Below are positions 4,262-33,382 of a stretch of DNA of 64,000 nt, in pieces; position 1 is the first letter of the stretch, and each line of letters starts with the position of its first letter. Both the position numbers and the translations under genes were made by a program. Source of the DNA: a virus; the IMG/VR virus record IMGVR_UViG_3300029790_000003; one strand, given 5' to 3'. The notes beneath the pieces are model-generated. The model did no database searches and was not told the origin of the DNA. It was given only the letters and a program-made list of their open reading frames with translations.

Positions 4262-4287
4262 GGTATCATTCAGTATATTATGGTATC
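4262..4287 (-). promoter_or_regulatory. Late-operon motif copy S1 (minus-strand GATACCATAATATACTGAATGATACC)
   Basis: Near-identical 25-26 bp element recurs at 20063-20088 and 29304-29328, each 70-175 nt upstream of a minus-strand structural operon. Confidence 0.55.
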
Positions 4288-4383
4288 ATTTCAATAATCT
4301 TTTCACATATGCATAAACAACTTTCAGCCAGTGGCTATTATCGCAATTCTGTACGAGATTAATAATCTCTGTCTTATAGTAAT

Positions 4384-4680
4384 TCATTCCACAATTCCTC
4401 CTAACATTCTAATCAATTTCTGTTTGCGGTTATACTTCAAAATCTCGGAAATCTGCCCCATCATATCATCCATCGTCATGTTGCTCTTCATGCTGTTGCA
4501 GCGCTTACACGCCAGTTGCAGATTCTTAATATCATTGGTGCCGCCCCGGGACAACGGCGTAATGTGGTCGATTGTCATTTTCTTGAATTTGACAGGTTTA
4601 CCGCATATCGCACATTTTCCGTTGCACTTGGCGTACACACTCTTTTTCTGAAAGTCATTGAACTGGATTCTGTTTGCCAT
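4384..4680 (-). CDS. HNH endonuclease (98 aa)
   Basis: CxxC...DHIxP...N...CxxCN HNH motif (CAICGK..DHITPLSRGG..NLQLACKRCNSMK). Confidence 0.75.
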   Translation of the reverse strand: MANRIQFNDFQKKSVYAKCNGKCAICGKPVKFKKMTIDHITPLSRGGTNDIKNLQLACKRCNSMKSNMTMDDMMGQISEILKYNRKQKLIRMLGGIVE

Positions 4681-4684
4681 ACGA

Positions 4685-4867
4685 TCACGCTTTCCCGATT
4701 AACTGTTTGGTAAAGAGATACATTCCCTTTAATTTTGACAGGTCTTTCAAATTGATAAGATTTTCAATGATTCTCTGGCGGTACATATACTCATCCAGAA
4801 GCACTAAGCACTCGTTGTTATCTGCGTTCAGTTCGTCGATTGTTTTCTGTAATTCAGCTTTTGTCAT
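4685..4867 (-). CDS. Hypothetical protein (60 aa)
   Basis: Short ORF, coiled-coil-like, tightly packed between neighbours. Confidence 0.35.
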   Translation of the reverse strand: MTKAELQKTIDELNADNNECLVLLDEYMYRQRIIENLINLKDLSKLKGMYLFTKQLIGKA

Positions 4868-4903
4868 TTTATTTTCCTCCTGTGTATCCCTGTAAAAATC
4901 TGA

Positions 4904-5719
4904 TTATGCGATTTCTACTCTGTATGCAATCATCATTTCTTTAATCACGCTAACGTAAATCTCTTTCAGCCGCTTATTCTGCATAATCACGGACAGTTTG
5001 TTGATCTGGTTAGTCTGTTCCTTGGTGCATCCTCTTTCCTCGGCTCTGGAAATCGCATTTCTAAGTTGCTGATCTAATCGGCAACCAGCCCTGTCCGATA
5101 ATCTGCGGTAGCTTTCGTTTCTGGCGGCGGCATATTTATTTCCGAATGAGTAAGAAAAATCATCGCTTTCAGCAATCTTTGAAATACATCTGTTTACCCA
5201 CTTCTCTGTTCCAACATCGGAATCTGTTCCCTTAAAGGTATCAATGATGGTTTTCATGTTTTTCTCTTGTTGGTCTGCACGTTCCGCAAGTTTCTTCTGT
5301 TCCAGTTCAGTCTTGGCTACCTGTTGAAAAATCTGATTAAACATTTGCAGTTCGGGGGACAGCTGATTAATGTTGATTGCTGTCTGCTTGTATTTCTCTT
5401 CCACTTGGATGAAATACTTGCGAACCTGTTTCCCTTTGTCGTTGCGCTCAAGCATTGCCATTTCTTTGGCGGTGTCAAGTTTGATGAGGTATTCTAATTT
5501 CGGTCTACCCCCCATAGGTTTTTCATTATTTTGTGAAAAACTCTGATAATCCTCATTTTCTATTGCGTCACACTCTTTCAGACGTGTTTTTATCCAATCT
5601 GTATACTGGCGCTTACTACCAAGGCACTCATATAATTCTGAACCATATACTACTTTTTCACCTGTACTTGTCTCATACACAGGAACTAATTCATTTTCAA
5701 TAACTTTTAAATCTGCCAT
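4904..5719 (-). CDS. Phage antirepressor, AntA/ORF6N N-terminal domain
   Basis: N-terminal pattern VVYGSELYECLG..YTDWIKTRL..EDYQ and AKEMAMLERNDKGKQVRKYFIQVE match AntA/ORF6N family signatures. Confidence 0.6.
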   Translation of the reverse strand: MADLKVIENELVPVYETSTGEKVVYGSELYECLGSKRQYTDWIKTRLKECDAIENEDYQSFSQNNEKPMGGRPKLEYLIKLDTAKEMAMLERNDKGKQVRKYFIQVEEKYKQTAININQLSPELQMFNQIFQQVAKTELEQKKLAERADQQEKNMKTIIDTFKGTDSDVGTEKWVNRCISKIAESDDFSYSFGNKYAAARNESYRRLSDRAGCRLDQQLRNAISRAEERGCTKEQTNQINKLSVIMQNKRLKEIYVSVIKEMMIAYRVEIA

Positions 5720-5834
5720 ATAAAAATCTCCTTTCAGATATTGAATTACCGCAAAGGAAATGGTATGATAGATTTAACAAATCCTTTGCGGTTTGTGTGT
5801 TAAGCGGTTGTAACTTTCCTAGGGTGGCAACCGC

Positions 5835-6029
5835 TTATTTTGTTTCATTTTCGTACTGAATTTCAATCCCTTTTCTAATTACTTTCGACCTGTCACTCCC
5901 TTCTTTTCTAACCAAGTAATCCAATTTTTCCAATGTTTCCTTGTCAATCCTCGTTCTCAGCATAAAGTCCTTTGGATTGTCTTTGATTTTTTGCCCCTTT
6001 ATTGGTGACATATTAAAACCTCCTTTCAA
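5835..6029 (-). CDS. Small putative DNA-binding protein (RHH-like)
   Basis: 64-aa ORF; beta-strand plus helix pattern (MLRTRIDKETLEKLDYLVRKEG) resembles ribbon-helix-helix regulators. Confidence 0.4.
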   Translation of the reverse strand: MKGGFNMSPIKGQKIKDNPKDFMLRTRIDKETLEKLDYLVRKEGSDRSKVIRKGIEIQYENETK

Positions 6030-6174
6030 ATTGTTGCTACATTTTGCATATACTTAATATATCACTTTGTAGCAACTAAATCAAGCATTATTTTAAATTT
6101 TTTCAAATTTCTTATTCCACTATCCGTTTTGGAGTGGTAAAATATGTGTATCACATTAAAGAGGGGGATTTTAC

Positions 6175-6906
6175 ATGAAAAGAAAATTTGTTATGGTTTT
6201 GGCTTTAACATCCATTTTTTCAAGTGTTACGCCTGTGTTCGCTAAAACAGATAAAGAAATTCTTTTTAGGGATATTCCGTGGGGAACTTCTTTCTCAGAT
6301 ACAAAGGATTTGTTTCCAGATCAGTGTCTTTATGGCATGCAATTAGATGGGATAAATGCAATGAGTACAAAAGAAATATTAACTGGCATGTCTGACGATT
6401 CCAATGTTTATGATGGTAAAATTTGCCTTTATGCTCAGCCATTAGATATTGCAGATGTAGATGTAGCTGGATATTCTACTCCTTACTTGAATTTTTACTA
6501 TTCTTATAGCATTAATGAAAATAAAATAGATTTTGATGATAGTAACACTTTGTTATATGGTGCACAATATGAATTTGAACCGAAAGATATAGACTCTATG
6601 TATTCTGATTTACTTGAAAAACTTTCATCTGTCTATGGTAATCCTGATAAAACAGAGAGCGATACTACTCAATGGGGAATAAAAAATATTTATACATGGT
6701 GGTATGGTGCTAACAATACTTCTTTAGTTCTTCGGGCATATGATTTATCAGATTATGATGATGATTTAGAAAATAACAAAATATATATTTCTTATGCCTG
6801 GCAAAAAGGAGATGAATTATTAAAAACTGCCGATGATACAATCAGTCAATCGAATAGTGATACCGAAGCAAGTGTATACGGAAATGGTTCCACCAACGGA
6901 TTATAA
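6175..6906 (+). CDS. Secreted protein with signal peptide, D/Y/N-rich (243 aa); only plus-strand gene in the first 39 kb
   Basis: RBS GAGGGGG then ATG; N-terminal signal peptide (VLALTSIFSSVTPVFA-KT); AT-richer codon usage than neighbours. Confidence 0.65.
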   Translation: MKRKFVMVLALTSIFSSVTPVFAKTDKEILFRDIPWGTSFSDTKDLFPDQCLYGMQLDGINAMSTKEILTGMSDDSNVYDGKICLYAQPLDIADVDVAGYSTPYLNFYYSYSINENKIDFDDSNTLLYGAQYEFEPKDIDSMYSDLLEKLSSVYGNPDKTESDTTQWGIKNIYTWWYGANNTSLVLRAYDLSDYDDDLENNKIYISYAWQKGDELLKTADDTISQSNSDTEASVYGNGSTNGL

Positions 6907-6908
6907 AA

Positions 6909-6930
6909 GGCTAGGGATTTCTCCCTAGCC
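6909..6930. terminator. Bidirectional hairpin terminator between convergent genes
   Basis: GGCTAGGGA-TTTC-TCCCTAGCC 9-bp stem; T-rich tail on the minus strand. Confidence 0.55.
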
Positions 6931-6940
6931 TAATTCCTAT

Positions 6941-8047
6941 TTACCATTCTGGTGCTGGCATATCACGAACATCGTATGACATATTTACGTATACTTCATA
7001 ACGATCTGGAATTATTGTATTATAATTTAAATCAGTTGGAAAATATGATTGTAAGTAATCAACACTTCCTTTTCTTTGAACATTAGCAAACAAACCATCG
7101 TCACATCCAATTATTCTATTATTTTTATAGTATACAACTGCCATATGGGTTCCACGATTGTTTTTTCCGTTATTCTTAACTGTTAAAACAACACCCTCTG
7201 TTCCTAAATTTGATGTATACGTAATATTCTTTGCATTAAAATCAAAATATGATACATTTTCTGTTTTTAAATTAATTTTTACAGAATCCCATTGACTTCC
7301 ATAATTTGTCATTAATGTAGCATATTTCATCCCTGGCTCAATTACACACGTATCATACTGATTACTTACTGAAACTATTTGTCCATTCAAACAAAAGGCA
7401 CAACTAATGTCAACCGCAACCGCATAATTGTAATTATTTTGAAGAATTATAACTTCTCCCCTTGGCGTTGCTTCTGCGTGATACGTTACATTGTTTTTTG
7501 AAGTACTCGTATTACCGCCAAATCCACCATTAGAAGGCTTTTTCACAGTAACTTTACAGGTAAATTTCTTTCCAAGAATGGTTGCTGTAATATTGGCGGT
7601 TCCTGCCTTTTTCGCAGTAATTTTTCCATTTTTTACGGTCGCAACGCTTTTCTTTGATGATTTCCATTTTACAGTCTGCTTAGTTCCTTTTACTTTTATG
7701 GTACTTGTCTTTCCAACTTTTAAAATAAGGCTTTTCTTGCTAAGTTTTGGAGATTCCACAGTTACTTTGCAAGTATACTTCTTTTTACCCACTTTTGCAG
7801 TGATTGTAGCAGAACCCGATTTCTTGGCTGTTACTTTCCCAGAACCACTTACCGTTGCCACAGATTTCTTGCTGGAAGTCCATTTTGTCTTTCCTTTTGT
7901 TCCAGACAATTTCAGTTTCAAGGTTTGTCCAGTAAGTAACGTTGCCTTATTCTTACTAATCTTCCCTGCCGCAGATACTGGAACTGCCATACAGACAATC
8001 AATAGCATGACTGCCAGAACCGATAGTAACTTTTTCACTTTCTTCAT
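6941..8047 (-). CDS. Secreted protein with two Big_2 (bacterial Ig-like) repeats (368 aa)
   Basis: Signal peptide; two ~55-aa repeats (KWxSSKKSVATV..GK.TAKK.G.A.ITA...GKK.TCKVTV) typical of Big_2. Confidence 0.65.
   Translation of the reverse strand: MKKVKKLLSVLAVMLLIVCMAVPVSAAGKISKNKATLLTGQTLKLKLSGTKGKTKWTSSKKSVATVSGSGKVTAKKSGSATITAKVGKKKYTCKVTVESPKLSKKSLILKVGKTSTIKVKGTKQTVKWKSSKKSVATVKNGKITAKKAGTANITATILGKKFTCKVTVKKPSNGGFGGNTSTSKNNVTYHAEATPRGEVIILQNNYNYAVAVDISCAFCLNGQIVSVSNQYDTCVIEPGMKYATLMTNYGSQWDSVKINLKTENVSYFDFNAKNITYTSNLGTEGVVLTVKNNGKNNRGTHMAVVYYKNNRIIGCDDGLFANVQRKGSVDYLQSYFPTDLNYNTIIPDRYEVYVNMSYDVRDMPAPEW
7552..7927 (-). repeat. Tandem ~190-bp coding repeat (two Big_2 domains)
   Basis: Protein-level duplication visible in translation. 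Confidence 0.45.
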
Positions 8048-8110
8048 ACACTCATACCTCCCAATAATTGATACCCATATTGTACCACTTTGGGACGCAT
8101 TCTGAAAGCC

Positions 8111-8344
8111 TTATTTCGCTTTTCTATCAATTTCCGCAGTTACGGCAAACAAAAGAGCTTCGGCAAATTTTGCGCCAACCGAATCGGAGTATTTATCGTG
8201 AATCTGGCTTGCTTCCATGGTGAGATTTTCCCACTGCGAAATATCGTCCTTTGAGATAAAGGCATACTTCTTGTGGAGGTTCCATATTTCCTGCCAGATG
8301 GAAAAATAAGTCTGCTTAAAGTCCATCAGCGTAAAGAACCCCAT
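8111..8344 (-). CDS. Hypothetical protein (77 aa)
   Basis: ORF only. Confidence 0.35.
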   Translation of the reverse strand: MGFFTLMDFKQTYFSIWQEIWNLHKKYAFISKDDISQWENLTMEASQIHDKYSDSVGAKFAEALLFAVTAEIDRKAK

Positions 8345-8621
8345 GATATTTCTCGAACCTATGCTCTTGCTTTATTTCTGGGTATTTGTTCCAATCTACC
8401 TTGCTATAAAACATCTTTGTTGGCCTGGCAAATAGTTCCTTACCGCCATACAAAGCTCTGTATACTACCAAATCTTCCCCTGTTTCTGTATGTCTGGCAT
8501 ATCCGATAAACTTATACAAATACTCGTTGTTGCGTGGCTCCTTGATGGTTTCTCTCTTAAAGTGCTGTACAATGTCTCCTGGTTCAAATAATGGTCTATA
8601 CATTTTCTTTCTCCTCCTCAC
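8316..8621 (-). CDS. Hypothetical protein (101 aa)
   Basis: ORF only. Confidence 0.4.
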   Translation of the reverse strand: MRRRKKMYRPLFEPGDIVQHFKRETIKEPRNNEYLYKFIGYARHTETGEDLVVYRALYGGKELFARPTKMFYSKVDWNKYPEIKQEHRFEKYHGVLYADGL

Positions 8622-8878
8622 CCAGCTAAAAGAATATCTCCAGGATTAACTTCATGGAGTTTTGTTATCTCAACATCTTTCTTACTCTCCCCTTCCCAAA
8701 TCAAGCCAAGGCTCAGAGCGATTCCTTTAGCTTCGTTTTCACTTCTGGCGCATACAAGCACATCATTAATACCCATATCGCATTCTATTCTCTTTGTTCT
8801 TGAAACCAAGTAAAGATTCCCGTTTATTTCCATGCTAACGTCCTCCATAATTTGTTGACTTCTTCGCCCGAAAATCAA
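8618..8878 (-). CDS. Hypothetical protein (86 aa)
   Basis: ORF only; 4-nt overlap with downstream gene. Confidence 0.4.
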   Translation of the reverse strand: MIFGRRSQQIMEDVSMEINGNLYLVSRTKRIECDMGINDVLVCARSENEAKGIALSLGLIWEGESKKDVEITKLHEVNPGDILLAG

Positions 8879-8938
8879 TTTTATTGGCTTATGCCTATAT
8901 TTTATAGTGTGAGTGGTTTTGTAGCGGATCCGGTTATT

Positions 8939-9571
8939 TTATCGCAGTAATTCTTTATCAATAATCTGGAAATTTGCCCTGTGGATATAAAGAGCTTTTC
9001 CGTCAATCATTAACTTTGTCATTTTAGGTAGATCGTCCGGGATTTTCCAGAACACCTCGTCACCAGAATATGCGGCTATCGGTTGTCCAAGTTGAGATTT
9101 GATTACTACAACCCTGGATTTCCCAAAATAATTTTTATAATAATTCACAATCCCGGCTATGTATGCATTCTCTGAAATCTTCCCGGTTGAATGGCTGGTA
9201 ATATCTTCCTGGGTAAAATCAACCTCCGGCTCCAATCCTTTTTGCTCAAAAATACAAGTATCACCACAGCTTTCAATTTCTTTACCGTCAATCAGAATTG
9301 TAATAACGGAAGATACGTCATAGCTGGTTGTTTCGTTACCCTCACTATCGTAGCCCTTGGATTTGGTTTTATTCCCGGCAATGTTGATCTTGTCCCCAGT
9401 GGTAGTCATAACCTTTTGACCGTAGTTGTCGTAGGTATAGATTGTGTAACTGTTTCCAGAAAGATTTCCTTTCACGTCATTCATGTAATCGTCATTCGCT
9501 GCACAGCCTGTTAGCCCTGTGATAACGCAAATAAAGGTAATTATCGCCAGTAGTGTTTTGATTCTTTTCAT
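8939..9571 (-). CDS. Lipoprotein (210 aa)
   Basis: Signal peptide with lipobox LTGC (ITGLTGCAAN). Confidence 0.65.
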   Translation of the reverse strand: MKRIKTLLAIITFICVITGLTGCAANDDYMNDVKGNLSGNSYTIYTYDNYGQKVMTTTGDKINIAGNKTKSKGYDSEGNETTSYDVSSVITILIDGKEIESCGDTCIFEQKGLEPEVDFTQEDITSHSTGKISENAYIAGIVNYYKNYFGKSRVVVIKSQLGQPIAAYSGDEVFWKIPDDLPKMTKLMIDGKALYIHRANFQIIDKELLR

Positions 9572-10020
9572 GGTTTTTGTCCTCCCTCATATGTCTCATA
9601 ATCAATCGTCCCCAGATCACCGTACACATCTGGGTAATAGATTCCAACCCAAAAGTTATCTTCCATTGCTTTGTAGTAAGTTACTTTTACATTCCATCTC
9701 TGTACCTCGTCAATAATTTCTTTGTTGAGAAGTCCGAATTGATCTCGGCAAGCTTCACTTTCCAGTTTGTAAGTCAATGCTTTGTATTTCTCGGCATTTG
9801 CCTGTCTGGTGGCGGTAACCGTAGTCTGGCTTATTGCTAAAAGCAATCCAGCGATCAAAAGATATACCGCACCGATAAAAGCCACTGCTACGCCCAAAAC
9901 AAGCACGGTTGCGCTCACATTCGAATACTCATATTCGTAGCTTAAAGATTCTCCTATTCTATTTGCAATCAGAATAACAACGCCGACTGCAAAAATGATT
10001 ATTGATAGCCAAAATATCAT
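9568..10020 (-). CDS. Integral membrane protein (150 aa, 2-3 TM)
   Basis: Hydrophobic helices (IIIFAVGVVILIA; VLVLGVAVAFIGAVYLLIAGLLLAI); translationally coupled to the lipoprotein gene. Confidence 0.55.
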   Translation of the reverse strand: MIFWLSIIIFAVGVVILIANRIGESLSYEYEYSNVSATVLVLGVAVAFIGAVYLLIAGLLLAISQTTVTATRQANAEKYKALTYKLESEACRDQFGLLNKEIIDEVQRWNVKVTYYKAMEDNFWVGIYYPDVYGDLGTIDYETYEGGQKP

Positions 10021-10110
10021 AGTGTGTCCTCCCTTTTCTCATTCTGCGTCAGATTTATCTGACATAATAATATCGTTAGATATTATTCAAAATATAATTC
10101 TTTCTCTTTT

Positions 10111-10217
10111 TCTTAATCTAAATCTATATCTAAATCTATATCTTAATCTATATCTTAATCTAAACCTTTATCTAAACCTTAATCTGAGTGCGTCTACTAT
10201 GCGTCTTTTGTGCGTCT
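10111..10217. repeat. Iteron array, copy A (homologous to the ori iterons inside the replisome-organizer gene at 49509-49629)
   Basis: Shared strings tctaaatcta, ttatctaaacct, atctgagtgcgtct, tgcgtcttttgtgcgtct in the same order and orientation. Confidence 0.7.
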
Positions 10218-10234
10218 AAAAAAATTAATTTATT

Positions 10235-11452
10235 TTAAGGTCTAAAATCATGCTTTTTTCTTTCCTCGCTTTCATATTCTGCACATTTTTCGGCGCAAAT
10301 AGTCCCTCCACAGGAAAACATAGCTTCTGGCATTTGCACTTTTTCATCATATTCTTTGCCTAATTTAAGCATTGAAAACATATTACCATAGTCTTCTCTA
10401 GTAACACAATTTGACCAATATTTATTTGACGCATAATGATTTAAAAGTCTTAATCCTTGTTCGGTAGTTAAAACTGGGTGAGGTTCATTGTATGTTTGAT
10501 AGTATTCCCTGTAATATTCTCTTAGCAATTCTGTGAAACCATTAAGGTACGGAATTAAGCTAACTCTATTTTGCGGCGAATATCTTTCAGAAAAGAAATA
10601 TCCATTATTTTCTAAATCAAGCCCATATTTAATATTTTTTATGCTCTTTTCGCCGTCAATATCTAGTATTCCTACAAAACATTTATCCATCATATAGTTT
10701 TGTGCAAATTTATCCTTATCAAATTTAACGCTTGGATATTTGACAAATATCTTCAAATACCGTTTATTTTTCTTTTCCTCCGCAAAATCTTCTTCTGTGA
10801 TTAAATATGTTTCAACATAATATTTTAAAAGTTTCGGATTAAACTCTATTCCTCGTGATGTTAAAACTTTCTTGATATAATTGAAATAATACTTTGACTT
10901 ATTATCCCCCTTTGAGTGATTAATACACACTCCTGGTATTTTTGAAAATGCCATTACAATTTCATCGTATGAAAATTCTTTACAATATGATTTTACGGAT
11001 TTTTCCATTGCGTCCATAATTTTATCTGCTGAAAATCTTTTCAACCAGATTCCTATTTCTTTGCGTCCGTTATCGTTTACATCACACCCTGTCAATTGTT
11101 CAAAATATTCGGTTAGCATGTTTACTGCCATATTATCATAATCGAGTAGCTCTTTCTTCCATTCAGCAATCATTTCCAACTGTTCTTTTTTCTCTGCAAG
11201 ATCTTTTAATGCTTCCTGTTGAAACGATATTGCTTTGGAATCTAAAATTCTAGTTTTTCCCTTCCCTCTATTGCAGTCGCGGCACGAAGTAATTAAATTT
11301 GTAATCTCATTATCCCCGCCCTCTGCTACTGGCTCAATATGGTCTACTTCCAAAATTACGTCTGGTGACATTCTTCCACAGTATTGACATGTGAATTTGT
11401 CTCTTTTGAATACTTCAAATCTGATTTTCTTGCTAAGTGGTTTTCTTGCCAT
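10235..11452 (-). CDS. HNH endonuclease-domain protein with ~330-aa C-terminal extension
   Basis: Start moved to MARKPL (RBS AAAGGCAGG); CQYCGR..EVDHIEPVAEGG..NLITSCRDCN HNH motif. Confidence 0.65.
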   Translation of the reverse strand: MARKPLSKKIRFEVFKRDKFTCQYCGRMSPDVILEVDHIEPVAEGGDNEITNLITSCRDCNRGKGKTRILDSKAISFQQEALKDLAEKKEQLEMIAEWKKELLDYDNMAVNMLTEYFEQLTGCDVNDNGRKEIGIWLKRFSADKIMDAMEKSVKSYCKEFSYDEIVMAFSKIPGVCINHSKGDNKSKYYFNYIKKVLTSRGIEFNPKLLKYYVETYLITEEDFAEEKKNKRYLKIFVKYPSVKFDKDKFAQNYMMDKCFVGILDIDGEKSIKNIKYGLDLENNGYFFSERYSPQNRVSLIPYLNGFTELLREYYREYYQTYNEPHPVLTTEQGLRLLNHYASNKYWSNCVTREDYGNMFSMLKLGKEYDEKVQMPEAMFSCGGTICAEKCAEYESEERKKHDFRP

Positions 11453-11580
11453 AGATTGATACCTGCCTTTCGTATAAAAGAGTGCCTTGAACTGTATGTA
11501 AATCAACAGGCAGGCGGCAAGGCATTTCCGCTTTTCGATGATCGGTCTAGCCTGTTGGTTTTACCAAAATTAACGGTTAA

Positions 11581-11652
11581 AATAAAAAAGAGCCGCCAAG
11601 TAAGATAAAAATTCCTCAAAATTGAGAAATGTTAATTTCTTCTTAGCGGCTC
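11581..11652 (-). terminator. Rho-independent terminator downstream of the tape measure gene
   Basis: GAGCCGC...GCGGCTC stem with extended imperfect pairing, followed on minus strand by TTTTTTATTTT. Confidence 0.5.
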
Positions 11653-11714
11653 AAAAATTCAAGACCGTGTGTACTTCTTCATTGAAGAAATTATACCACA
11701 CAATCAGTCAAAAA

Positions 11715-14700
11715 TCAATATGCCGGGGACGGTTTGAAACGGCTATCTGTATCATTTTGGGCTTTTGTTACTGCTTTCGCAATCTCGCTTCCGTCCAGGA
11801 TAATGCTGTTCATGATGTACTGCGGATTCTTGTTTCCACTGTTCATACTCATTGCCATTGCAACTCCCTGTGCTACTGCTTTTGCCATTTCTTCTTTTGT
11901 AAGTCCCATGCTTCCGTCTGAACTGGAAACAATGCTGTCTGCAATCTTCTTCATGGTTCGCGGATTTTCCAACGGAAGAACGGCTTCAGAACCAGCTTCA
12001 CCGATGCCAATTACCTGTGCACCATTGAAAAGACCACCTTTGGCGTACCAATTAGGCTTATAAACTGGTGTAGAACTGGTTCTTCCACCACCAAGATCAT
12101 GTTTTCTCCACTCTGAAATATAATAAGTCAGAGTTGGCAAGTGCACTTGTTTCATGCCATCAGCAAATGATTGAGCTGTTTCCCGACCAATTGATGTAAG
12201 ATTAACATTAAATAGCCTTTTAATTTTATCCGAAATCCCAGACAAATTAGATTCTGTGTAGGTTTTCATTTTTCCAGTTTCCGTGTCAACTTTACCAGAA
12301 GCCTTTTCCCAAATCTGGTTTGTATTGATAAGAACAGAAGACCAATAGCTTTGAATGGTTGTCATAACTTTACCCATTACATCTTTGGTATCGGTGTCCA
12401 TGGTTCCAAGGGCTGTTGATACTGCACTTGCAGAATTTCCCCAGTTTGTTTTAGAGTTGGTTTCAACATCATCATTCGTGTTCTTTATCTTTGACCAAAT
12501 AGAAGGCATTGTGCTTTCTGTGCTTTTTTTCATCCCAGCCATTGCAGTGCTTACGGCAGTGTTAGCAAGTCCAAAACCAGTTTTTGTCTTGGATGATACG
12601 GAGCTAGAAGCATTTGCAACAGCGGTAGTAATACCTCCCACTGCTGTTTTCACAGATGTATTCATTCCATCGAAAGAATTCTTTGCACTTGTTTCCATTG
12701 TAACAACTGCATCTGGAAAATCTTTTCTGAGTTTTTCATCTAATTCATCTAACGGAACGCCAGCATTTTTTAATGACGTATAAACTGCGTCTAGTGCTTC
12801 TTCTGTATTAGCATATGTTCTTCCAGATATTGCACTATCAAGAGCATCTTTAGCAGTTAAGTAGTCTCCACTAAATTGCTCGGAACTAAGACTTAAAAGA
12901 TAAAGTTCGTCTTTCAAATCAGATATACTGATTTTGGTTGTATCAAATTTTCCTGCTGATTCAGATACACCATCTCCAAGGGCTATAGCTTTGTCAGTCA
13001 TATCTTCCAAAAATCCAGTTGATACGCCCGCCTGTGCGCCGTATTTTTCGAGAATTTTTCTTGCATCTTCGGTTGATACGCCGAATTCTCCAAGTTTCTG
13101 AATGAAACTATCGTACATTTCAGAATTTGATTTTCCGGCACTTTCATCTGCTTCAATTAACTTCCAAAGCTCTTCTGCTTGGTCTTGCGTTATCTTATGA
13201 GCACTTTCCATCTCGCCTGTATAATCATGGAGATAACCACCTGTTTGTGATAGAATTCCATTTCCACCTTGCGCAGCTTCTGTAATACTTGCAATTCCTC
13301 TTGCGAGTTTAACGGATAATGCCGTTGCGACAAATACAATCCCAGCGGTTCCAAATATAGTACCAAGCGTTGAAGAAAATGAAGATAATCCACCTGTAGC
13401 CGCCGTTTCCGCTGCTCCACCAATATCACCGATGATAGTAGGAAGAGAAGATGCGGTATCAAGTGGGAAATTTAAAAGTTTTGAAGCTAATGAACCGATT
13501 CCACTTGCAAAGGAAAAGATTTTGGTGGCAATATCCTTGGCTATTTTGATTGCAAACAATGTTCCGAATGCAGCACCAACTTGTTTTATAAATTCTGGAT
13601 CAACTCCACTTAATTTTTCAGCCAGCCAATTAATAGCATTTGCAATACCATTAATTAAGTCCGCTCCGATATTAATTATTCCTTCAAGTCCGGTAATCAA
13701 CGCATCTGCAAATCCCTCTGCGAATGGTTGGAATGCAGACCATAAATTTCCAAGAGCAGTTCCAATAGCATTCCAATCAACCTTATCAATAAAATTCTGT
13801 ATTGAGGTTTTTACACGGTCAATGCTACTCCAAATCCACTCCCAGTCAACATCAATAACTCCGAAATTATCAAGTGCAAGTACGATTCCACCGATGCCAA
13901 GTGCCATTGCTGCATAAGGATGTTTTGCCAATAAAGCAAGTCCTTTTCCTAATGGGCTGTCTTTTCCGATGATTCCACCAATAAAGGTTAATCCTTTGAA
14001 TCCAAGGATTGCAATGGAGATTTGTCCAAGTCCTTTTCCAATTGCCTGTGCAGTTTCCGGGCTGATATTCTTTATTGCATCGGCAATTGAGTTCAAGCCT
14101 ACAGGAAGCGTTGTATTGATGAAATTTTCTCCAACATCGAGCAAATCTTTGAAGAAGTCAACAATTCCCTGTCCAACATTTTGTGCAAATGGCGCAAGTG
14201 CATCCCAGAAGTTTTTCAATGCCGAATTAAGTTCGTCCCAGTGAATGTTGTTTCCGAAATTTGTTAATGCGTCAACAAGTTCCGGGATTGCACTATTCAT
14301 TGTCCATGTACCTACCGGCACTAAGAATTTCTCATAGAAATCCATGAGACCAGTCCAAACAAATTTTGTTGGCTTTTGAAGCATTGTAAAGAAACTGGAA
14401 AGCGAGCTATTCAGTTTACCCCAATTGATTTTATTCAGTAAATCATTCGTAATATTAAAGAACCGTGGAAGCCCGGAATTATCAGATAACATCCATAATC
14501 CAATTGGTTTCAGATAATTATTCCACAAATCTTTCAGAGCTGTAATAGAGAAGTTTCCAAGCTTGCTAAGACCTTCACTGTACAGTTTCTTGATTGATTC
14601 TGTGGTTGGTTTAGCTGCTTTACGAATTTTCTTAAATACAGCTACAATCTGATCAGCGGTATCATTTGCCTTATTATTCATTTCTTCAAAAGCTTTATCC

Positions 14701-19563: not shown

Positions 19564-19965
19564 TTAAAGTAATTTTCCTGTATATATCCGGCTGTATCGA
19601 CTCACAAGCTTTTTGATTCCACTGTCACCAAAAAACATAGGTTCCGGTCCGTATGTACGGCGGAATCCCATGCTTACCATAGCTTTGTGACTTATCTTGT
19701 CCAATTCATACACTCTGGTTAGTGCTTTGCTCCCAGATGTGAAGCAATTTACTTGAAACGATGGCATTGTTGCGCATTCATCCCCTTCAAGGTCACCTCT
19801 TGTAATTGGATTCCCAAGCATATAAAGCTGTGCATATGCTTTTTTACCGGAAGCATTTGTTTCACTGCCATCCATGGAATAATTGTCTGCGCCAGTAATC
19901 TTAGAAACAGCCGCTCCCCATCTTGAAAAAACTTCTAATACAGGAGATTCTATTGTGTCTGGCAT
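19564..19965 (-). CDS. Head-tail joining/tail completion candidate (133 aa)
   Basis: Start moved to MPDTIES (RBS GAGGTGA, spacing 6); position between connector and MTP. Confidence 0.45.
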   Translation of the reverse strand: MPDTIESPVLEVFSRWGAAVSKITGADNYSMDGSETNASGKKAYAQLYMLGNPITRGDLEGDECATMPSFQVNCFTSGSKALTRVYELDKISHKAMVSMGFRRTYGPEPMFFGDSGIKKLVSRYSRIYTGKLL

Positions 19966-20062
19966 ATCTGTCACCTCACAATAAAAAAATGCACTCACCT
20001 TTATAGTGAACGCATTGCATTTTATACTACAATTTAACACTGTAATGATAACATAATTGTTT

Positions 20063-20088
20063 AGTATCATTCAGTATATTATGGTATC
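20063..20088 (-). promoter_or_regulatory. Late-operon motif copy S2 (GATACCATAATATACTGAATGATACT)
   Basis: 25/26 identical to S1; 98 nt upstream of the gene starting at 19965. Confidence 0.55.
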
Positions 20089-24273: not shown

Positions 24274-24513
24274 TTATGAATACAAAGAAAAGCCCCGACA
24301 ATACATCGGGGCGACTTTCATAATTTTCTTCTTTAATTTTCTGTTTATGCGGTCTACTGTTCTTGTACTGTACCCCATGATTTCTGAAGCTTCTGCAAGC
24401 GTTTTTTCTTCATAAACACGCAATCGGAATAACTCCTTTTCTCTGGAATCAAATCCAGCTTCACGCAAATAGAAGATTCTTTCATCTTCTGAAAAGTCTT
24501 TATAATCATCCAT
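24274..24513 (-). CDS. Sigma-70 region-4-like HTH protein (79 aa), candidate late-gene regulator
   Basis: REKELFRLRVYEEKTLAEASEIMGYSTRTVDRINRKLKKK matches the region 4.2 pattern. Confidence 0.45.
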   Translation of the reverse strand: MDDYKDFSEDERIFYLREAGFDSREKELFRLRVYEEKTLAEASEIMGYSTRTVDRINRKLKKKIMKVAPMYCRGFSLYS

Positions 24514-26528: not shown

Positions 26529-26542
26529 TGTGGAATACCTCC

Positions 26543-26899: not shown

Positions 26900-26916
26900 A
26901 ACTTAATTCTCCTTTT

Positions 26917-27735: not shown

Positions 27736-29232
27736 TCATTCTTCGTTAGATGGAGAATTTGCCATTGGTTCTGTTTTGGACGGATTTTGAAACTTTCCGT
27801 CAAGTAATTGCTGTGCTTTCTGCATTTCCGCTTCCGGGTCTGCCAGTTCCGGGTAAATAGTTCCCAGATACGGTAAACTCATTTCGTAGACTTTCTGCGG
27901 ATCACTAAATAAACCGCAAGTAATCAGTGCAATAAGCGGATGAATTTTATTTTTAAACAGATAATCGAGTGCCTGTGCTTTTACAAGCATATTGTCTGTT
28001 GGGTTTCTGGTTATCTTTACATCAAAATCTCTGGTTGAGATATTAACATCATTTGATGTACCACGGATAATATTCAGAATAATTCTAGCAGATTCCTTTT
28101 CAGCTTCCTTGGTGAATGCTTCTACCAATTTTGCATCTCTTTCTGCGAAGTCCCATCCATTACGAAGGTATACAGCATTTCCTGTATCACCTCCGCTATT
28201 GCTTTGGCGGTTTGGCATTGCTTCCACAATCAGCATGTTATTGTAGATATCATCCTTTGCAACCTGGCTCTCTGATTGATTCAATTCAGCGGTCATCAGT
28301 TCAACATCTGACTGACAGCCATTTCCAGTATCTTTTACAGAGATGGCACCAAGTTTTACCATTTTCAAAAACTCGTTTTCATCTACCTCGCAGTTCTTGA
28401 ACTTCATAAAGGCTTGCACAAACTGTTCAACGCCATTTAATCTATCAGACTGGTATTTGTTAATTGCATCAAATAAGGTGATTGCAATTTCAACATCTGA
28501 AAGCCTGTCATGATTATTCGGGCATTCAACAATAGGAATTCCTCCAAAACCGTTGATGCCATATTCGGTTACTTTTCCATTCGTGATTTTGAAAAACTGT
28601 TTCTTTGAATAACATAAGTAGTATTGTTGCTCATCTTCATCCTTCAAAATCTGAACGGACAGCATTGGTTTTCCGTTCCTCTGCGAATATACAATGTAAC
28701 AATCACCAGGATACGGAATAAAGATTCTAAACGGCGGTAAATCTCCGTTTTCTGTCCAGTCCTCTTCTTTCAGAATAGCCTTATAAGAAGTTCCTGTTGC
28801 ACTTTGGTATATTGCTCTCTGGATGTTTCTTGCATCTGCATTGGCTTCATCCAGATAATCATTCAGCAAATCAACTTGCTCATTTATTTTTTTGTCTGCA
28901 TTTTTCTTTTTACATACATATTGGATTGGTTCCCCGCAAATCTGTCCAGCTTTAAATTTTACAGTTTCAAATGCGTGATTTTCAACCACTCTGTTATTAA
29001 CTTCTGGACGTACTATTTTATTTCGATACAATATCGGCTGATCACCTTTCATGTACCGATACAAGTAATCAATCAATGTTCGATTTCTATTATGTATGCC
29101 AATTGTATCTGATACTACTTTTACTACATTTTGTGGAGTGATTCGGTCAACGCCTGTGTAGGCTACTTTTCGCCCGAAATCACCTCGGCATAAATCTACA
29201 AAATTCATTGTATTTCTCACGAGCCGAACCAT
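27736..29232 (-). CDS. Portal protein (498 aa)
   Basis: Size and position after terminase; SPP1-gp6-like. Confidence 0.75.
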   Translation of the reverse strand: MVRLVRNTMNFVDLCRGDFGRKVAYTGVDRITPQNVVKVVSDTIGIHNRNRTLIDYLYRYMKGDQPILYRNKIVRPEVNNRVVENHAFETVKFKAGQICGEPIQYVCKKKNADKKINEQVDLLNDYLDEANADARNIQRAIYQSATGTSYKAILKEEDWTENGDLPPFRIFIPYPGDCYIVYSQRNGKPMLSVQILKDEDEQQYYLCYSKKQFFKITNGKVTEYGINGFGGIPIVECPNNHDRLSDVEIAITLFDAINKYQSDRLNGVEQFVQAFMKFKNCEVDENEFLKMVKLGAISVKDTGNGCQSDVELMTAELNQSESQVAKDDIYNNMLIVEAMPNRQSNSGGDTGNAVYLRNGWDFAERDAKLVEAFTKEAEKESARIILNIIRGTSNDVNISTRDFDVKITRNPTDNMLVKAQALDYLFKNKIHPLIALITCGLFSDPQKVYEMSLPYLGTIYPELADPEAEMQKAQQLLDGKFQNPSKTEPMANSPSNEE

Positions 29233-29303
29233 CCTTTCTGCAAAATAAAAAGCACTGGATGTTTTAATCCAATGCTCTACTTTATATTCTACACATATTA
29301 AAA

Positions 29304-29328
29304 GTATTTTTCAGTATACTTCGGTATC
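29304..29328 (-). promoter_or_regulatory. Late-operon motif copy S3 (GATACCGAAGTATACTGAAAAATAC)
   Basis: Shares GATACC-N4-TATACTGAA-N3-ATAC with S1/S2; 72 nt upstream of the portal start. Confidence 0.5.
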
Positions 29329-29749
29329 ATCTTTCGAAACCTTTTATCTTTTTTATTTCTGCTATGGCTTTTAAATGCTTTTTTTTAATGTGAATCTCTG
29401 AATAACCCATCTCATCTGCAATGCGAACCAAAGATTTGTACTCAACATAGTGCTTAAATAATATGTCATATAGTAATGGATCTTCAACCTGTTCTATGGT
29501 TCGGACTATTTCTTGTCTTTTTTGTAAAAATTCAGATATCATTTCTGAAATCTCTTCTCGCAGATCAAATATCTTCGCAATCATATCTCCCATCGGATCA
29601 CGTTTTACAGAAGTTTGTACCTTTTCTCCAACAGGAATTGCAGATACACTTGTGGAAAGAGAACTGAGCTGTTCTTCTTCGATAAGCTTATTTTTGATTC
29701 TGTTATCATAATTTTCAATCTGGCGTAAATATTGAGCTGTAGTCATCAT
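29327..29749 (-). CDS. ArpU/RinA-like putative late transcriptional regulator (140 aa)
   Basis: C-terminal sigma-r4-like HTH (LLYDILFKHYVEYKSLVRIADEMGYSEIHIKKK); overlaps the TerL stop. Confidence 0.4.
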   Translation of the reverse strand: MMTTAQYLRQIENYDNRIKNKLIEEEQLSSLSTSVSAIPVGEKVQTSVKRDPMGDMIAKIFDLREEISEMISEFLQKRQEIVRTIEQVEDPLLYDILFKHYVEYKSLVRIADEMGYSEIHIKKKHLKAIAEIKKIKGFER

Positions 29750-29752
29750 ACT

Positions 29753-31447
29753 CTATCTCCTTCCCCACATAAAATTTTTGGTTGCTTTTACTTCTGCAAA
29801 TCTTTTGCCGGCAAGCGTTATTGCAAGCTGCGTAACTCCATCGGCAGCGTCATCATGTTCATTATCACCAATATAGACGAATGTAGTTAATTCATCCATA
29901 GCCTTTTGATACTGTTTATCTTGATATTTCGGAGCCAAAAATATAAAATTTTGCTTAACATCCCCGGAATATTGATTTATTTTTTCTTTTTTTGCTTGTT
30001 TTGAAGGTGCTTTTGTACTTGTCGTGCTGCAAGCGTATTTATGTTCTTTCAAGCGTTCATTTACATAATAGGCATACATATCTCCACCATTATTTGCTTC
30101 AAAATTGATAGATTGAATATTATTTCCCATGATTCTTCCAACAACTAATGGCAATGTTCCTTCTTTTGGCGCTGTGCTAAAAATCCAGTCATATATATAC
30201 ACATCTCCATTTTCGTATTCTGCACCTACTGGCATTGATAAGCTATCGCCACCACCCCACGCAACATCGCAAGCAGAAACATTTTTAACAAATCCACCTT
30301 CTGGGAGAACGCCGTTATAATATCTCAATTCGTCAGCTGCAAACACAATTCCTTCACGCAAGAAGGGCTTTTGCTGATATTTGGCTTCCCATTCGTTAGC
30401 GTCTAACCTAGCTTTCATATCAACATAATATTTTGTTGAAAATCCAACGCCATACTCATAATCGAAATTGGATTCACCATCATCGTTCAAAGCTGGAATT
30501 TTTCTAAACCGATACATTGGATTATCCCGATTTAGCTTCTCTATTTTTCCAAGAGGGTCATATAAATTCCATCTGGTTCCAACCATAAGTTCTCTTGCAC
30601 CATCAATCTTACGGTCAACCATCTTGTTTAGATATTCTTGATATGTGTTTTCTAATCGGGTAGGACTTAATGAATGTTGCCTATCTCTTACAAGGTCATC
30701 CACGTACAAATACCCATCGGAAGAAATGTCAACGGCACCTGTCCAAGTACCTTCAATACCACGGCAAGCCATTGTTGCAAATCGGTCTGGCTTGTCCAGG
30801 TTTATTTCAAAATCATCAGCACTCTGTTTTTGAAGTTTCGACTGTGGAAAAATTTCACTATAGTTGTATTCCTGTGTATTAATGAGATTAAGAAGTTCTC
30901 CGTAAAATCCTTTTGCCAGTTTTCCAGAATGACCACCCATGGCACTATGGCTATTTGGTCTTTTACCCATTATCCATGACATAAAGAAAATACACATAGT
31001 GGATTTTCCAACACGGCTCGGAAGCGATAAACCGTAAAACTCTATCTTTCTTTCTTCCAAATCTTGTAGGTCTTGGGCTACCACATGTAGTGTTTTTCTT
31101 CGTGGAATATAAAATTTCTTGCTGTCTGGTCTATTTTTTTCCATATAAAGCAAGTAACTTTCAAATAAATGTGGTGCTTCCAACAACAAATACTGCCAGT
31201 AGATATCATCAAAATCACCACTGCCAGTTAATGCAGCACACTTCTCTGCTATGTTATGTGAGTATTGACTTACTTTCATAGCCATTTTCCGTGCTTCTTG
31301 GTTCTTTCTGAAAGGAAGGTCAATATTCATATTTAAGAGCAAATCAAGGCAATCTTTTTGATTCTGATAGATTGTCATGTCACTACTGATAATCTGATTC
31401 AGTACTGCCCGATACCATTCAAGCGAACCTTCTGTAATTTTTCCCAT
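29753..31447 (-). CDS. terL: Terminase large subunit (564 aa)
   Basis: Walker A-like LPSRVGKST; C-terminal nuclease-like region; precedes portal. Confidence 0.75.
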   Translation of the reverse strand: MGKITEGSLEWYRAVLNQIISSDMTIYQNQKDCLDLLLNMNIDLPFRKNQEARKMAMKVSQYSHNIAEKCAALTGSGDFDDIYWQYLLLEAPHLFESYLLYMEKNRPDSKKFYIPRRKTLHVVAQDLQDLEERKIEFYGLSLPSRVGKSTMCIFFMSWIMGKRPNSHSAMGGHSGKLAKGFYGELLNLINTQEYNYSEIFPQSKLQKQSADDFEINLDKPDRFATMACRGIEGTWTGAVDISSDGYLYVDDLVRDRQHSLSPTRLENTYQEYLNKMVDRKIDGARELMVGTRWNLYDPLGKIEKLNRDNPMYRFRKIPALNDDGESNFDYEYGVGFSTKYYVDMKARLDANEWEAKYQQKPFLREGIVFAADELRYYNGVLPEGGFVKNVSACDVAWGGGDSLSMPVGAEYENGDVYIYDWIFSTAPKEGTLPLVVGRIMGNNIQSINFEANNGGDMYAYYVNERLKEHKYACSTTSTKAPSKQAKKEKINQYSGDVKQNFIFLAPKYQDKQYQKAMDELTTFVYIGDNEHDDAADGVTQLAITLAGKRFAEVKATKNFMWGRR

Positions 31448-31522
31448 AAAAATAGAGCCAGACCTCCTTTCTTTTTAGGATTTAGTCTGGCTCTCATGTG
31501 GCTCTCTTGACTGGTTTACTTA

Positions 31523-32476
31523 TTATTTAACATTCTCATCAGCTGTCATGTCTCTTGTATCTACGATGGTAGAAGTGTTACCTCCTTGAATCTTTGGTAC
31601 TTCACCATTCCATTTATCAATCTTCTGTTTTTCAATCAGTTCGGGAGTAAGAGATTCTGCGATTTTTCTATTTGCTTCTGCTTCAGCTTCTGCTTTAATC
31701 TTAATTGCTTCTGCTTTTCCTTCTGCATCAATCTTTGCCTGTTCCGCTTGGATAGATGCTTTTTCTTTTTCCTGTTCAGCAGCAATCAGTGCAACTTCTT
31801 TATCTTTATCAGCTTGTACTTTGGCTGTTTTAGCTTCAATGTTAGCAAGTTCTAATTCTTGCTGTGCATTTACCTTCTTCTGAATTGCAGCCTGTGTTTC
31901 ATCATCGGTGGAAATAGAAGTAAAGTTTACTGTATCAATAATAATTCCGTATGGCTCAAACTTCTGCTTAAGATATTCGTCAAGTGCTTCATTCAGTTCC
32001 TGGCGTTTATCACCGAAAACATCTGTTACTGGATACTTCGCAGTTACTTCCTGCGTCCATGCTTTCATCTTAGGCTTAATAAAAGTATTTTTCACAGATT
32101 CCCCGGATTGACCTTTGAACTGAGTAAATACATCAGTTACTCTGCTCTGATCGAATTTATAAGAAAATTCAAGGTCGACTTGAAGCGATTTTCCATCTGC
32201 CGTTGGTGTCTTGAAACTTTCATCTTTTGGAGAATCGCCCTTATCCTCAGATGTAAGATAAGACTGCTCGATTCCAACGGAATACAGTGAAGTTTTTACT
32301 GTAGGTGAAATCAAATGCCATCCCTGTGTAAGTACATTCTTAGAGATTCCTCCGTTCATTTTGTACTCTACCGCAATGTAACCAGCCGGAACTCTCACAC
32401 TGCACTTTGCAACACATATAAGTCCTGCAATGATTACAACAGCTAATCCAATTCCACCTAAAAGTCCTTTTTTCAT
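31523..32476 (-). CDS. SPFH/band-7 (prohibitin/stomatin-like) domain protein (317 aa)
   Basis: N-terminal TM anchor, SPFH core, C-terminal A/E/K coiled coil (AEQEKEKASIQAEQAKIDAEGKAEAIKIKAEAEAEA). Confidence 0.75.
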   Translation of the reverse strand: MKKGLLGGIGLAVVIIAGLICVAKCSVRVPAGYIAVEYKMNGGISKNVLTQGWHLISPTVKTSLYSVGIEQSYLTSEDKGDSPKDESFKTPTADGKSLQVDLEFSYKFDQSRVTDVFTQFKGQSGESVKNTFIKPKMKAWTQEVTAKYPVTDVFGDKRQELNEALDEYLKQKFEPYGIIIDTVNFTSISTDDETQAAIQKKVNAQQELELANIEAKTAKVQADKDKEVALIAAEQEKEKASIQAEQAKIDAEGKAEAIKIKAEAEAEANRKIAESLTPELIEKQKIDKWNGEVPKIQGGNTSTIVDTRDMTADENVK

Positions 32477-32637
32477 TTATTATCCTCCTCTTTTTGACTT
32501 TCGTCTTTATTTAACTCATCAATAGCATTTCTGCCAATGTGGTTCAATAATTTACCTAGTGGTTGAAATAATTTGTAAAGCAGGAACCATACTACTGCCG
32601 CTCCACATATCACTAGAAATATAAATACTGGATTCAT
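32473..32637 (-). CDS. Small membrane protein (54 aa) translationally coupled to the SPFH gene (NfeD-like partner candidate)
   Basis: ATG at 32637; single TM (FIFLVICGAAVVWFLLY); stop TGA overlaps the SPFH ATG (ATGA). Confidence 0.45.
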   Translation of the reverse strand: MNPVFIFLVICGAAVVWFLLYKLFQPLGKLLNHIGRNAIDELNKDESQKEEDNK

Positions 32638-32853
32638 TCAATCACCTAACTTTCTACAAATTTCAATAAAATCTGGCTTACTAAGTTCTTTCAGCTTGTT
32701 AGCATATTTTGGAAATTCATGTGTATATATCGGATGACCTAAAAGTTTTTCTGCGTATTCGTATGCAAGTTTTCGGTCATCCCCTGTAAGCATACAAATT
32801 CCTGTATAGGTTTCAATTACTACAGCTTCTTGTTTTGTCATACATATCCTCAC
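32638..32853 (-). CDS. Hypothetical protein (71 aa)
   Basis: ORF only. Confidence 0.4.
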   Translation of the reverse strand: MRICMTKQEAVVIETYTGICMLTGDDRKLAYEYAEKLLGHPIYTHEFPKYANKLKELSKPDFIEICRKLGD

Positions 32854-32862
32854 TTGATAAAA

Positions 32863-33057
32863 TCATCTTTTTAATTCCGAAAAAATATTTTCAATTACTT
32901 TCCACTCTGCGAATACTGCCATGAGCAATAATGGTACTGCCGAAAACCCCCAATGATTTTCAATCATCATTTGAATTGTGGCTATCAAATAATCTGCTAC
33001 CCACTTGAATATAATAAAATTAGTGATTATACAACATATCTTTCTGATTTTATTCAT
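32863..33057 (-). CDS. Small membrane protein (64 aa)
   Basis: Hydrophobic ORF. Confidence 0.35.
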   Translation of the reverse strand: MNKIRKICCIITNFIIFKWVADYLIATIQMMIENHWGFSAVPLLLMAVFAEWKVIENIFSELKR

Positions 33058-33287
33058 ACATTCACCTCAAATTCTTTCTTACAGTTGCTTCCCTTGCATT
33101 TTAATTTAAGATGCTGAATCTTTGTGTTTGGGCTAATCAAAAGTGCTTTCTTCTGGCAAAAAGGGCAACAGGCGTATTTCACTCCATTGATATTCCGTAT
33201 TAACGCCTGTCCATTCCATGGTTCTGGTGGATTCATGTATTCAGAAAAATCTATCCCTTCGGATTCTAATGCTGATTTAATGCTCAT
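33054..33287 (-). CDS. Zinc-ribbon protein (77 aa)
   Basis: CCPFCQ...CKGSNCKK. Confidence 0.45.
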   Translation of the reverse strand: MSIKSALESEGIDFSEYMNPPEPWNGQALIRNINGVKYACCPFCQKKALLISPNTKIQHLKLKCKGSNCKKEFEVNV

Positions 33288-33367
33288 TTATTTTTTTCTT
33301 ACTCCTTTTCGCCCTGCAACTCTACGCTCCTTTGGTTCCCCGTGCATCTTTTTTCCGTTGTTTGTTA

Positions 33368-33382
33368 GGTATATTCCGTATC
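33368..33382 (-). promoter_or_regulatory. Weaker copy of the late-operon motif (S4; GATACGGAATATACC)
   Basis: Partial match in the 160-bp intergenic region upstream of 33054..33287. Confidence 0.3.

Follow-up and report, generated by a model that had tools for sequence, protein, structure and literature searches.

The 64,000-nt stretch of the virus record IMGVR_UViG_3300029790_000003 (IMG/VR) analysed here, hereafter the window, harbors a 26-bp element of three direct repeats at three sites, each on the minus strand and ahead of a block of structural genes. With a probability of roughly two in three, we consider these repeats to be operator arrays of an Ltr-type activator, a 140-amino-acid (aa) protein of the DUF1492 family, which would drive late promoters of the host sigma-A type and be used three times along the window. 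The system would most likely represent a relative of a switch known from Gram-positive phages, not a new kind of system. A preliminary description of the same DNA had pointed in this direction and is partly supported, being right in outline and wrong in detail. The components of the three cassettes and the candidate regulator are as follows.

4262 to 4287, minus strand: site 1, repeats GATACC-ataa-TATACT-gaat-GATACC (pattern searches)
20063 to 20088, minus strand: site 2, repeats GATACC-ataa-TATACT-gaat-GATACT (pattern searches)
29303 to 29328, minus strand: site 3, repeats GATACC-gaag-TATACT-gaaa-AATACT (pattern searches and orthologue comparison)
4244 to 4252, minus strand: extended -10 of site 1, TGC TATGAT, 12 nt after the third repeat (sequence and conservation)
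20045 to 20053, minus strand: extended -10 of site 2, TGT TATCAT, 12 nt after the third repeat (sequence and conservation)
29286 to 29295, minus strand: extended -10 of site 3, TGTG TAGAAT, 11 nt after the third repeat (sequence and conservation)
4184 to 4219, minus strand: hairpin and T-run of site 1 (folding, covariation)
19981 to 20016, minus strand: hairpin and T-run of site 2 (folding, covariation)
29238 to 29278, minus strand: hairpin and T-run of site 3, -15.1 kcal/mol (folding, covariation)
29327 to 29749, minus strand: gene of the 140-aa DUF1492 (LtrB-type) protein, putative late regulator (PF07374, phrog_36, AlphaFold2/Foldseek)

The element consists of kATACy repeated at a 10-bp pitch (GATACC-N4-TATACT-N4-GATACy). 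All site counts for the window refer to its full 64 kb. The sequence GATACCATAATATACTGAATGATAC is present twice on the minus strand with no mismatch over 25 nt, at 4263-4287 (site 1) and 20064-20088 (site 2), whereas none of 100 shuffles yielded any such match; the likeness of these two sites extends to 44 nt (86%) and takes in the extended -10 downstream. The copy at site 3, GATACCGAAGTATACTGAAAAATACT (29303-29328, minus strand), differs from the other two at 5 of 25 positions and retains all three repeat cores. Mismatch-tolerant motif searches over the window recover sites 1 to 3 only. GATACCN4TATACTGAA with up to two mismatches matches exactly these sites and nothing more (chance expectation 0.12), exact matches to ATAC-N6-ATAC-N6-ATAC occur nowhere else (0.21 expected), ATACY-N5-ATACY is confined to them as well (0.35 expected), and the three-repeat pattern with up to three mismatches reveals no further site in the 64 kb.

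Three of the four sites reported in the preliminary description are real, far beyond chance. The weaker fourth copy that it placed at 33368-33382 has to be abandoned: it shows just two repeat-like hexamers at a 9-bp pitch, lacks the third repeat, the -10 and the hairpin, falls within a probable 51-codon open reading frame (ORF; 33446 to 33291) and is missed by every mismatch-tolerant search. The minus orientation and the distance of 70-175 nt to structural blocks noted earlier hold for sites 1 to 3, which lie 175, 98 and 71 nt above the starts of the DUF6711 gene (4087), the first tail-block gene (19965) and the portal gene (29232), respectively; the supposed pre-terminase site is rejected. 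The structure itself was misread, as two GATAC(C) repeats 20 bp apart flanking a TATACT -10: there are three direct repeats, of which TATACT is the middle one.

A TG-extended -10 of the host type (TGnTATAAT-like) is found 11-12 nt past the third repeat at all three sites, and predicted start points would lie near 4237 (site 1), 20038 (site 2) and 29279 (site 3). No usable -35 is present, the best candidate (cTGAat) matching at 3-4 of 6 positions, and the repeat array would span about -50 to -25. Every site is also followed by a hairpin resembling an intrinsic terminator, a feature missed in the preliminary description; these hairpins are stable and are followed by 5-7 T (-19.9 kcal/mol for the extended fold at site 1, -13.2 at site 2 and -15.1 at site 3). 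Their pairing is maintained across clades: at site 2, 8 of 9 pairs stay canonical through AU/GC/GU exchanges, and at site 3 compensatory base-pair changes are seen. At site 2 no more than about 6 nt separate the T-run from the ribosome site GAGGTGA, which leads to the ATG at 19965, and the T-run of site 3 stands directly before the ribosome site and ATG of the portal gene. Because the T-run abuts the ribosome site in both cases, no other promoter fits and the portal and tail transcripts must pass the hairpin. A promoter between T-run and ribosome site was considered and rejected, as there is no space and no -10-like hexamer there. So was a start inside the terminator stem, by which termination would be escaped, as each predicted start precedes a complete stem by 2-24 nt. 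The AT-rich leaders do contain -10-like hexamers, none of them conserved across the three site classes. No known RNA family is detected at the cassettes in an Rfam scan of the window at gathering threshold, whose only matches, four tRNAs and an int-alpA motif, lie in other places.

The best candidate for the factor that reads the repeats is the 140-aa protein, already singled out earlier as ArpU/RinA-like: it is a DUF1492 protein, site 3 lies just distal to its gene, and the repeats change together with the protein. It matches PF07374 (DUF1492) with 23.9 bits (cut-off 21.5) and the family phrog_36 ("transcriptional regulator"), and its homologues carry a precomputed PF07374 assignment. The stop codon of the gene overlaps the first repeat of site 3, and the regulator's stop meets an array in the same way in relatives of 70%, 52% and 30-39% identity, each having repeats of its own. 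In the AlphaFold2 model the protein has two long N-terminal helices and a C-terminal three-helix helix-turn-helix (HTH), with a predicted local distance difference test (pLDDT) score of 90-95 over residues 81-130, and Foldseek aligns the C-terminal domain with sigma-4 domains that bind the -35, at 1.2-1.9 A over 50-58 residues.

A motif scan of viral contigs recovers the element at more than 118 loci in human-gut phages of about 80 kb, with several loci per contig. The genes below these loci are the portal gene, a tail-block gene or a DUF6711 gene; at 26 loci they are instead Rha/Ant-like or T5orf172-like accessory genes, other ORFs, or none that can be called. Upstream of the copies of the site-1 type the sequence differs between genomes up to the edge of the element, where conservation stops exactly, and chimeric cassettes occur among the relatives. 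Among 35 unique orthologous portal-site sequences, which were found via the protein and not via the motif, the repeats are invariant and substitutions are restricted to the spacers, one position of the -10 and the hairpin loop. The -10 stands at 11-12 nt with a TG upstream in 106 of 106 unique site sequences, and in 104 of the 106 a terminator follows, its T-run beginning 33-55 nt past the -10; given the close relationship of these sequences, such counts are a measure of conservation rather than of independent events.

One relative has, at 11815-11839, a GATACY cassette with an extended -10 and without a terminator, upstream of a hydrophobic 71-aa protein. The latter may be a membrane protein, possibly related to lysis, which hints at a fourth class of targets.

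In IMG/VR, 287 homologues of the regulator come from the group of ~80-kb human-gut phages. A protein-anchored scan of viral contigs gave relatives of 97-100% identity only, and a second protein search with a 33% homologue as query added a single sequence; the distant relatives came from a genome collection. The order TerL-regulator-portal is kept where the regulator is 70% or 52% identical. In the 70% clade, one 79-kb contig carries the three orthologous sites, each with three GATACY repeats, the middle one being GATACT and not TATACT at all three; the flanks of the sites have diverged, and the -10 and hairpin are retained. In the 52% clade the repeat unit is AATCATAT, replacing GATACY: both orthologous positions examined, the portal site and the site-2 orthologue, carry TATGCAATCATATGGAATCATAT, followed at both by an extended -10 and a hairpin. 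The site-2 orthologue of this clade comes after a 75%-identical homologue of a 183-aa gene. The recognition helix of the regulator is SEIHIKKK in the window versus SIQHIRSC in the 52% clade, and neighbouring proteins are 57-86% identical. Repeats and regulator co-vary across these genomes.

Still more distant homologues (30-39% identity) lie in prophages of Lachnospiraceae, Faecalibacterium and Lachnoclostridium, and for this reason the hosts are most likely Clostridia. These prophages keep the same order, namely the regulator stop, lineage-specific repeats at a 10-bp pitch (5x CCTATG, 4x CGCAACT, 3x TGTCry, 2x TTCAT), an extended -10 and a terminator. No array beyond this single one was found in them within up to 10 kb on either side of the regulator, and several sites per genome seem to be characteristic of the ~80-kb phage group.

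The minus strand carries nearly all genes of the window. Read from high towards low coordinates, the order is TerL, the 140-aa DUF1492 protein, site 3, portal, scaffold, major head, genes of the connector region and site 2, and then the tail block, a variable accessory island, site 1, the DUF6711 gene and a tail/host-range protein. The genes that delimit the blocks are the following.

31447 to 29753, minus strand: terL (gene annotation)
27736 to 29232, minus strand: portal gene, first of the head block below site 3 (PF05133, E 4.8e-72)
24274 to 24513, minus strand: gene of a 79-aa Sigma70_r4 protein, second candidate factor, judged less likely (PF04545, 29.8 bits)
19564 to 19965, minus strand: first tail-block gene, 133 aa (position after site 2)
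19103 to 18627, minus strand: gene of a major-tail-like protein (tail block)
17813 to 11715, minus strand: tape measure gene, 2032 aa (tail block)
1 to 4087, minus strand: tail-tip block below site 1 (DUF6711 gene and tail/host-range gene)
4087 to 3722, minus strand: DUF6711 gene, first gene after site 1
3721 to <1, minus strand: tail/host-range protein of >1240 aa, running off the window

The tail module is split by the accessory island (4384-11714), which has the tape measure gene on one side and the distal tail gene on the other. Its cargo comprises two HNH endonucleases, an AntA-type antirepressor, an Ig-domain protein and one plus-strand gene, and relatives hold different cargo there. It has its own consensus sigma-A promoter. 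A promoter-like site, a near-consensus TTGATT-17-TATAAT with TG, stands at 11718 to 11690 (minus strand); the Rfam int-alpA RNA match (11485-11557, minus strand; 45.4 bits, gathering score 35.8), in the gap after the tape measure gene, lies downstream of this site and upstream of a gene coding for a 423-aa HNH endonuclease. The tail block also includes a gene coding for a 97-aa protein (19212-19505, minus strand), located between the first gene of that block and the major-tail-like gene, which matches the holin family phrog_1129 (E 2.6e-23). At the other end, terL is preceded by a gene coding for an SPFH/Band-7 protein, and its ribosome site lies within a hairpin (GAGCCAGAC...GTCTGGCTC) followed by a T-run (31448-31522, minus strand). 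No small terminase gene was recognised near terL (29753-32476, minus strand).

On this layout, we propose that the Ltr-type activator probably oligomerises via its two long N-terminal helices and that its sigma-region-4-like C-terminal HTH would read the repeats. The array would cover the region upstream of a host sigma-A extended -10; since no usable -35 is present, the bound activator is proposed to substitute for -35 recognition, and would recruit or stabilise the host RNA polymerase. The three promoters would restart late transcription before the portal/head, the tail and the distal-tail/host-range blocks, the last one following the variable accessory island with its own constitutive promoter. 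With the regulator gene between terL and portal, terL would stay outside the regulated block. The hairpin and U-run 33-55 nt after the -10 would be passed by every transcript, and most likely insulate the late blocks from upstream transcription and keep the off-state tight. As the hairpin stands between promoter and genes, termination would have to be leaky or relieved.

Several observations weigh against this scheme. A strong-looking terminator directly below the predicted promoter is awkward for pure recruitment. The 140-aa protein is not basic overall (isoelectric point (pI) 6.3, against 8.3 for the C-terminal domain alone), and its gene lies between terL and portal, not upstream of terS. 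Substitutions in the recognition helix occur in the 70% clade too, yet GATACY is kept there, so that the correspondence of helix and repeat is suggestive and does not amount to a code. Finally, the genomes behind most of the 206 sites in relatives are closely related, and these sites do not count as independent.

The position of the terminator below the promoter, with obligatory read-through, is what leaves Q-like antitermination as the main rival, albeit an unlikely one. Here the promoter would fire alone and give short RNAs that end at the hairpin, until the DUF1492 protein bound at the repeats, or a partner, loads on the polymerase at the promoter and makes it terminator-resistant; control would thus be exerted at the terminator and not at initiation. 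This would suit the T-runs that leave no room for a second promoter at sites 2 and 3, the stable and covarying hairpins (-12 to -20 kcal/mol, then 5-7 U), the several further terminator-like hairpins inside the late blocks, and -10 elements that are near consensus with TG and could work without an activator. It would also suit the promoter-then-terminator order conserved in distant family members. The same order is present in 80alpha: in the rinA-terS spacer (1422-1607 of the stretch read), the rinA stop is immediately followed by a pair of TGGCAGT repeats, spaced at a 10-bp pitch, and then, before the mapped 5' end, by an intrinsic terminator (1536-1565). Moreover, RinA of 80alpha requires sequences >155 bp upstream of the mapped terS 5' end, a requirement that puzzled its authors (PMC3152322) and that likewise favours antitermination. 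The 140-aa protein does have weak matches to the Q-like models phrog_79 (1.2e-5) and PF06530 (19.8 bits, cut-off 26, E 7.7e-4), but these are below threshold and cover the generic HTH only, and neither a Q protein nor a Q fold is found among the 50 Foldseek matches listed. A processive antiterminator would also leave the internal sites 1 and 2 largely redundant, and a conserved pause element was not identified in the AT-rich leaders. A literature search for an antitermination role of RinA or ArpU found nothing relevant, and the Phi13 and TP901-1 data are consistent with direct activation by way of repeats that lie immediately upstream of a sigma-A -10 (PMC13123087).

A bolder form of the antitermination idea, which we hold to be rather doubtful, concerns the whole family: DUF1492/Ltr proteins, possibly RinA too, would load on the polymerase at a near-constitutive extended -10 promoter flanked by repeats and carry it through the terminator 33-55 nt downstream. 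If true, Gram-positive phages would possess a functional counterpart of lambdoid Q whose fold is sigma-4-like. This would explain both why the promoter-then-terminator order is kept from phages of gut Clostridia to the staphylococcal 80alpha and why RinA needs its distant upstream sequences.

Returning to the activator, the 79-aa protein (24513 to 24274) had been named as a second possible factor, and it is quite improbable that it reads the repeats, either by itself or jointly with the 140-aa protein. It scores above the Sigma70_r4 cut-off, falls in phrog_36 like the 140-aa protein, and its synteny is conserved in all three clades. However, PRTVDRIN, its recognition helix, hardly changes in the 52% clade, in which both examined sites differ in their repeat, and the protein remains 79-90% identical across clades whereas the 140-aa protein goes down to 52%. 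No repeat array adjoins its gene, which lies inside the late block downstream of site 3, so that its product could not start late transcription.

The preliminary description also left a choice between activator- and alternative-sigma-dependent late promoters. Activator dependence is very probably correct, and an alternative sigma factor is unlikely in view of the host-type -10 and of profile and structure searches that match no sigma-2 domain in either the 140-aa or the 79-aa protein. The specific version, in which an alternative sigma encoded by the phage would use a promoter that lacks a -35 and has TATACT as its -10, is very improbable. The hexamer matches TATAAT at 5 of 6 positions and is identical at the three window sites, and the candidate proteins match sigma-70/ECF models, but only below threshold, the alignment to TIGR02937 being limited to the sigma-3.2/4 part (positions 67-163). 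Against this, the hexamer belongs to a set of three repeats with equal spacing, reads GATACT at each of the three 70%-clade sites and is missing from the 52% clade, and the conserved TG-extended -10 stands 22 nt downstream of it.

Equally hard to credit is a dispersed, non-regulatory recombination or homing cassette (a target or by-product of the neighbouring HNH endonucleases, or a pac-like site for a small terminase), for although an HNH gene abuts site 1, relatives show chimeric combinations and cassettes before accessory genes, and the 140-aa gene adjoins terL with no terS recognised, the distance to -10 and terminator is fixed, the orientation is always that of the downstream genes, the clades share three orthologous positions, repeats change along with the regulator, and the copies before accessory genes are still in promoter context. 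The 140-aa protein as small terminase or pac binder is rejected on its domain order, with the HTH C-terminal as in Ltr proteins and not N-terminal as in small terminases, and on the three promoter-linked sites.

Some features of the window lie apart from the cassettes. Two arrays of 6-nt-period repeats of the TTTAGA/GATATA type (10111-10185 and 49507-49585, with wider extents of 10087-10217 and 49511-49617) are about 75% alike over 107 nt, and may represent iteron-like binding sites; three AGACGCA copies precede the first array in the 10021-10240 gap. Two 47-nt copies (42198-42244 and 42474-42520) are 72% identical, share GTGCTTAATTGTCAATA and adjoin the only divergent gene pair of the window, a position at which they may act as early operators or promoters. 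A cluster of tRNA genes (Ser-TGA, Met, Met and Gln-TTG; 34631-35812, minus strand) lies between the early and late regions, and a 193-aa protein (36049-36630, minus strand) has a Thoeris anti-defence Tad2-like domain (PF11195, E 6.7e-26).

The cassettes provide a concrete and testable map of late transcription for an abundant group of uncultured ~80-kb human-gut phages, and suggest that several late promoters can be placed as a regulon under one Ltr-type switch. The natural specificity swap between GATACY and AATCATAT, each with its matching regulator, could be used for dissecting DNA recognition, and such pairs are possible orthogonal phage-derived promoters for Clostridia. The conserved order of promoter then terminator sharpens the question of how Ltr proteins act.

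Among known systems, the lambdoid Q switch (PR'-tR') is similar in having a DNA site at the promoter and a terminator before the late genes with obligatory read-through. It differs in that the protein found here is not of a Q family (PF03589, PF06530 or PF06323), with a sub-threshold sequence match and no fold match, that several cassettes are present per genome, and that the terminator lies only 33-55 nt from the -10 with no pause element identified. In the middle promoters of phage T4, MotA and AsiA act through an activator box near -30, 11-13 bp upstream of a -10 that often has TGn, which replaces the -35. This likeness concerns promoter geometry and layout only: no MotA or AsiA homologue is present here, and three phased repeats with a sigma-4-like reader take the place of that box. 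The PeSL cassettes of T4-type phages are short promoter-plus-stem-loop units bordering variable accessory genes and appear to mark exchange points; their promoters are early and read by host sigma-70 in Gram-negative hosts, whereas the similar units found here next to variable accessory genes are predicted to be late and activator-dependent. The Lactococcus phage TP901-1, with its activator Alt, has imperfect direct repeats from -76 to -32 of the late promoter PL, which has no -35 (cited in PMC3152322 and PMC13123087). To that extent both systems have repeats reaching down near the -35 region of a late promoter devoid of that element, but Alt is an unrelated protein acting on a single promoter, and the repeats of the window would occupy about -50 to -25.

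The closest resemblance is to the Ltr superfamily (RinA, ArpU, LtrA/Sigma70_r4, LtrB/DUF1492 and LtrC), in which DUF1492 corresponds to the LtrB class (PMC3753634). Members of all four Ltr classes activate terS expression in reporter fusions, the repeats just distal to the regulator gene proved essential when mutated for RinA, LtrC and ArpU, electrophoretic mobility shift assays show binding of ArpU and LtrC to those repeats, and the characterised intergenic regions include a terminator (PMC3753634); the Ltr of Phi13 requires both the repeats and a sigma-A TATA box (PMC13123087). Those systems have been characterised by experiment, whereas the one described here is known from sequence. Common to both are a small protein with a C-terminal HTH that sets specificity (a predicted role here), 2-4 direct repeats just distal to the regulator gene (here overlapping its stop) and upstream of a host sigma-A -10, a terminator that shares the intergenic region with them, and lineage-specific repeats matched to their own regulator. 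In contrast to the published cases, the regulator gene is placed here between terL and portal, the protein, although small, has an overall pI of 6.3, the hosts are probably gut Clostridia, and the terminator is downstream of the predicted promoter, with obligatory read-through. A single late promoter, driving the whole morphogenesis/lysis operon, is described for those phages, whereas three are predicted here, and four or more in some relatives.

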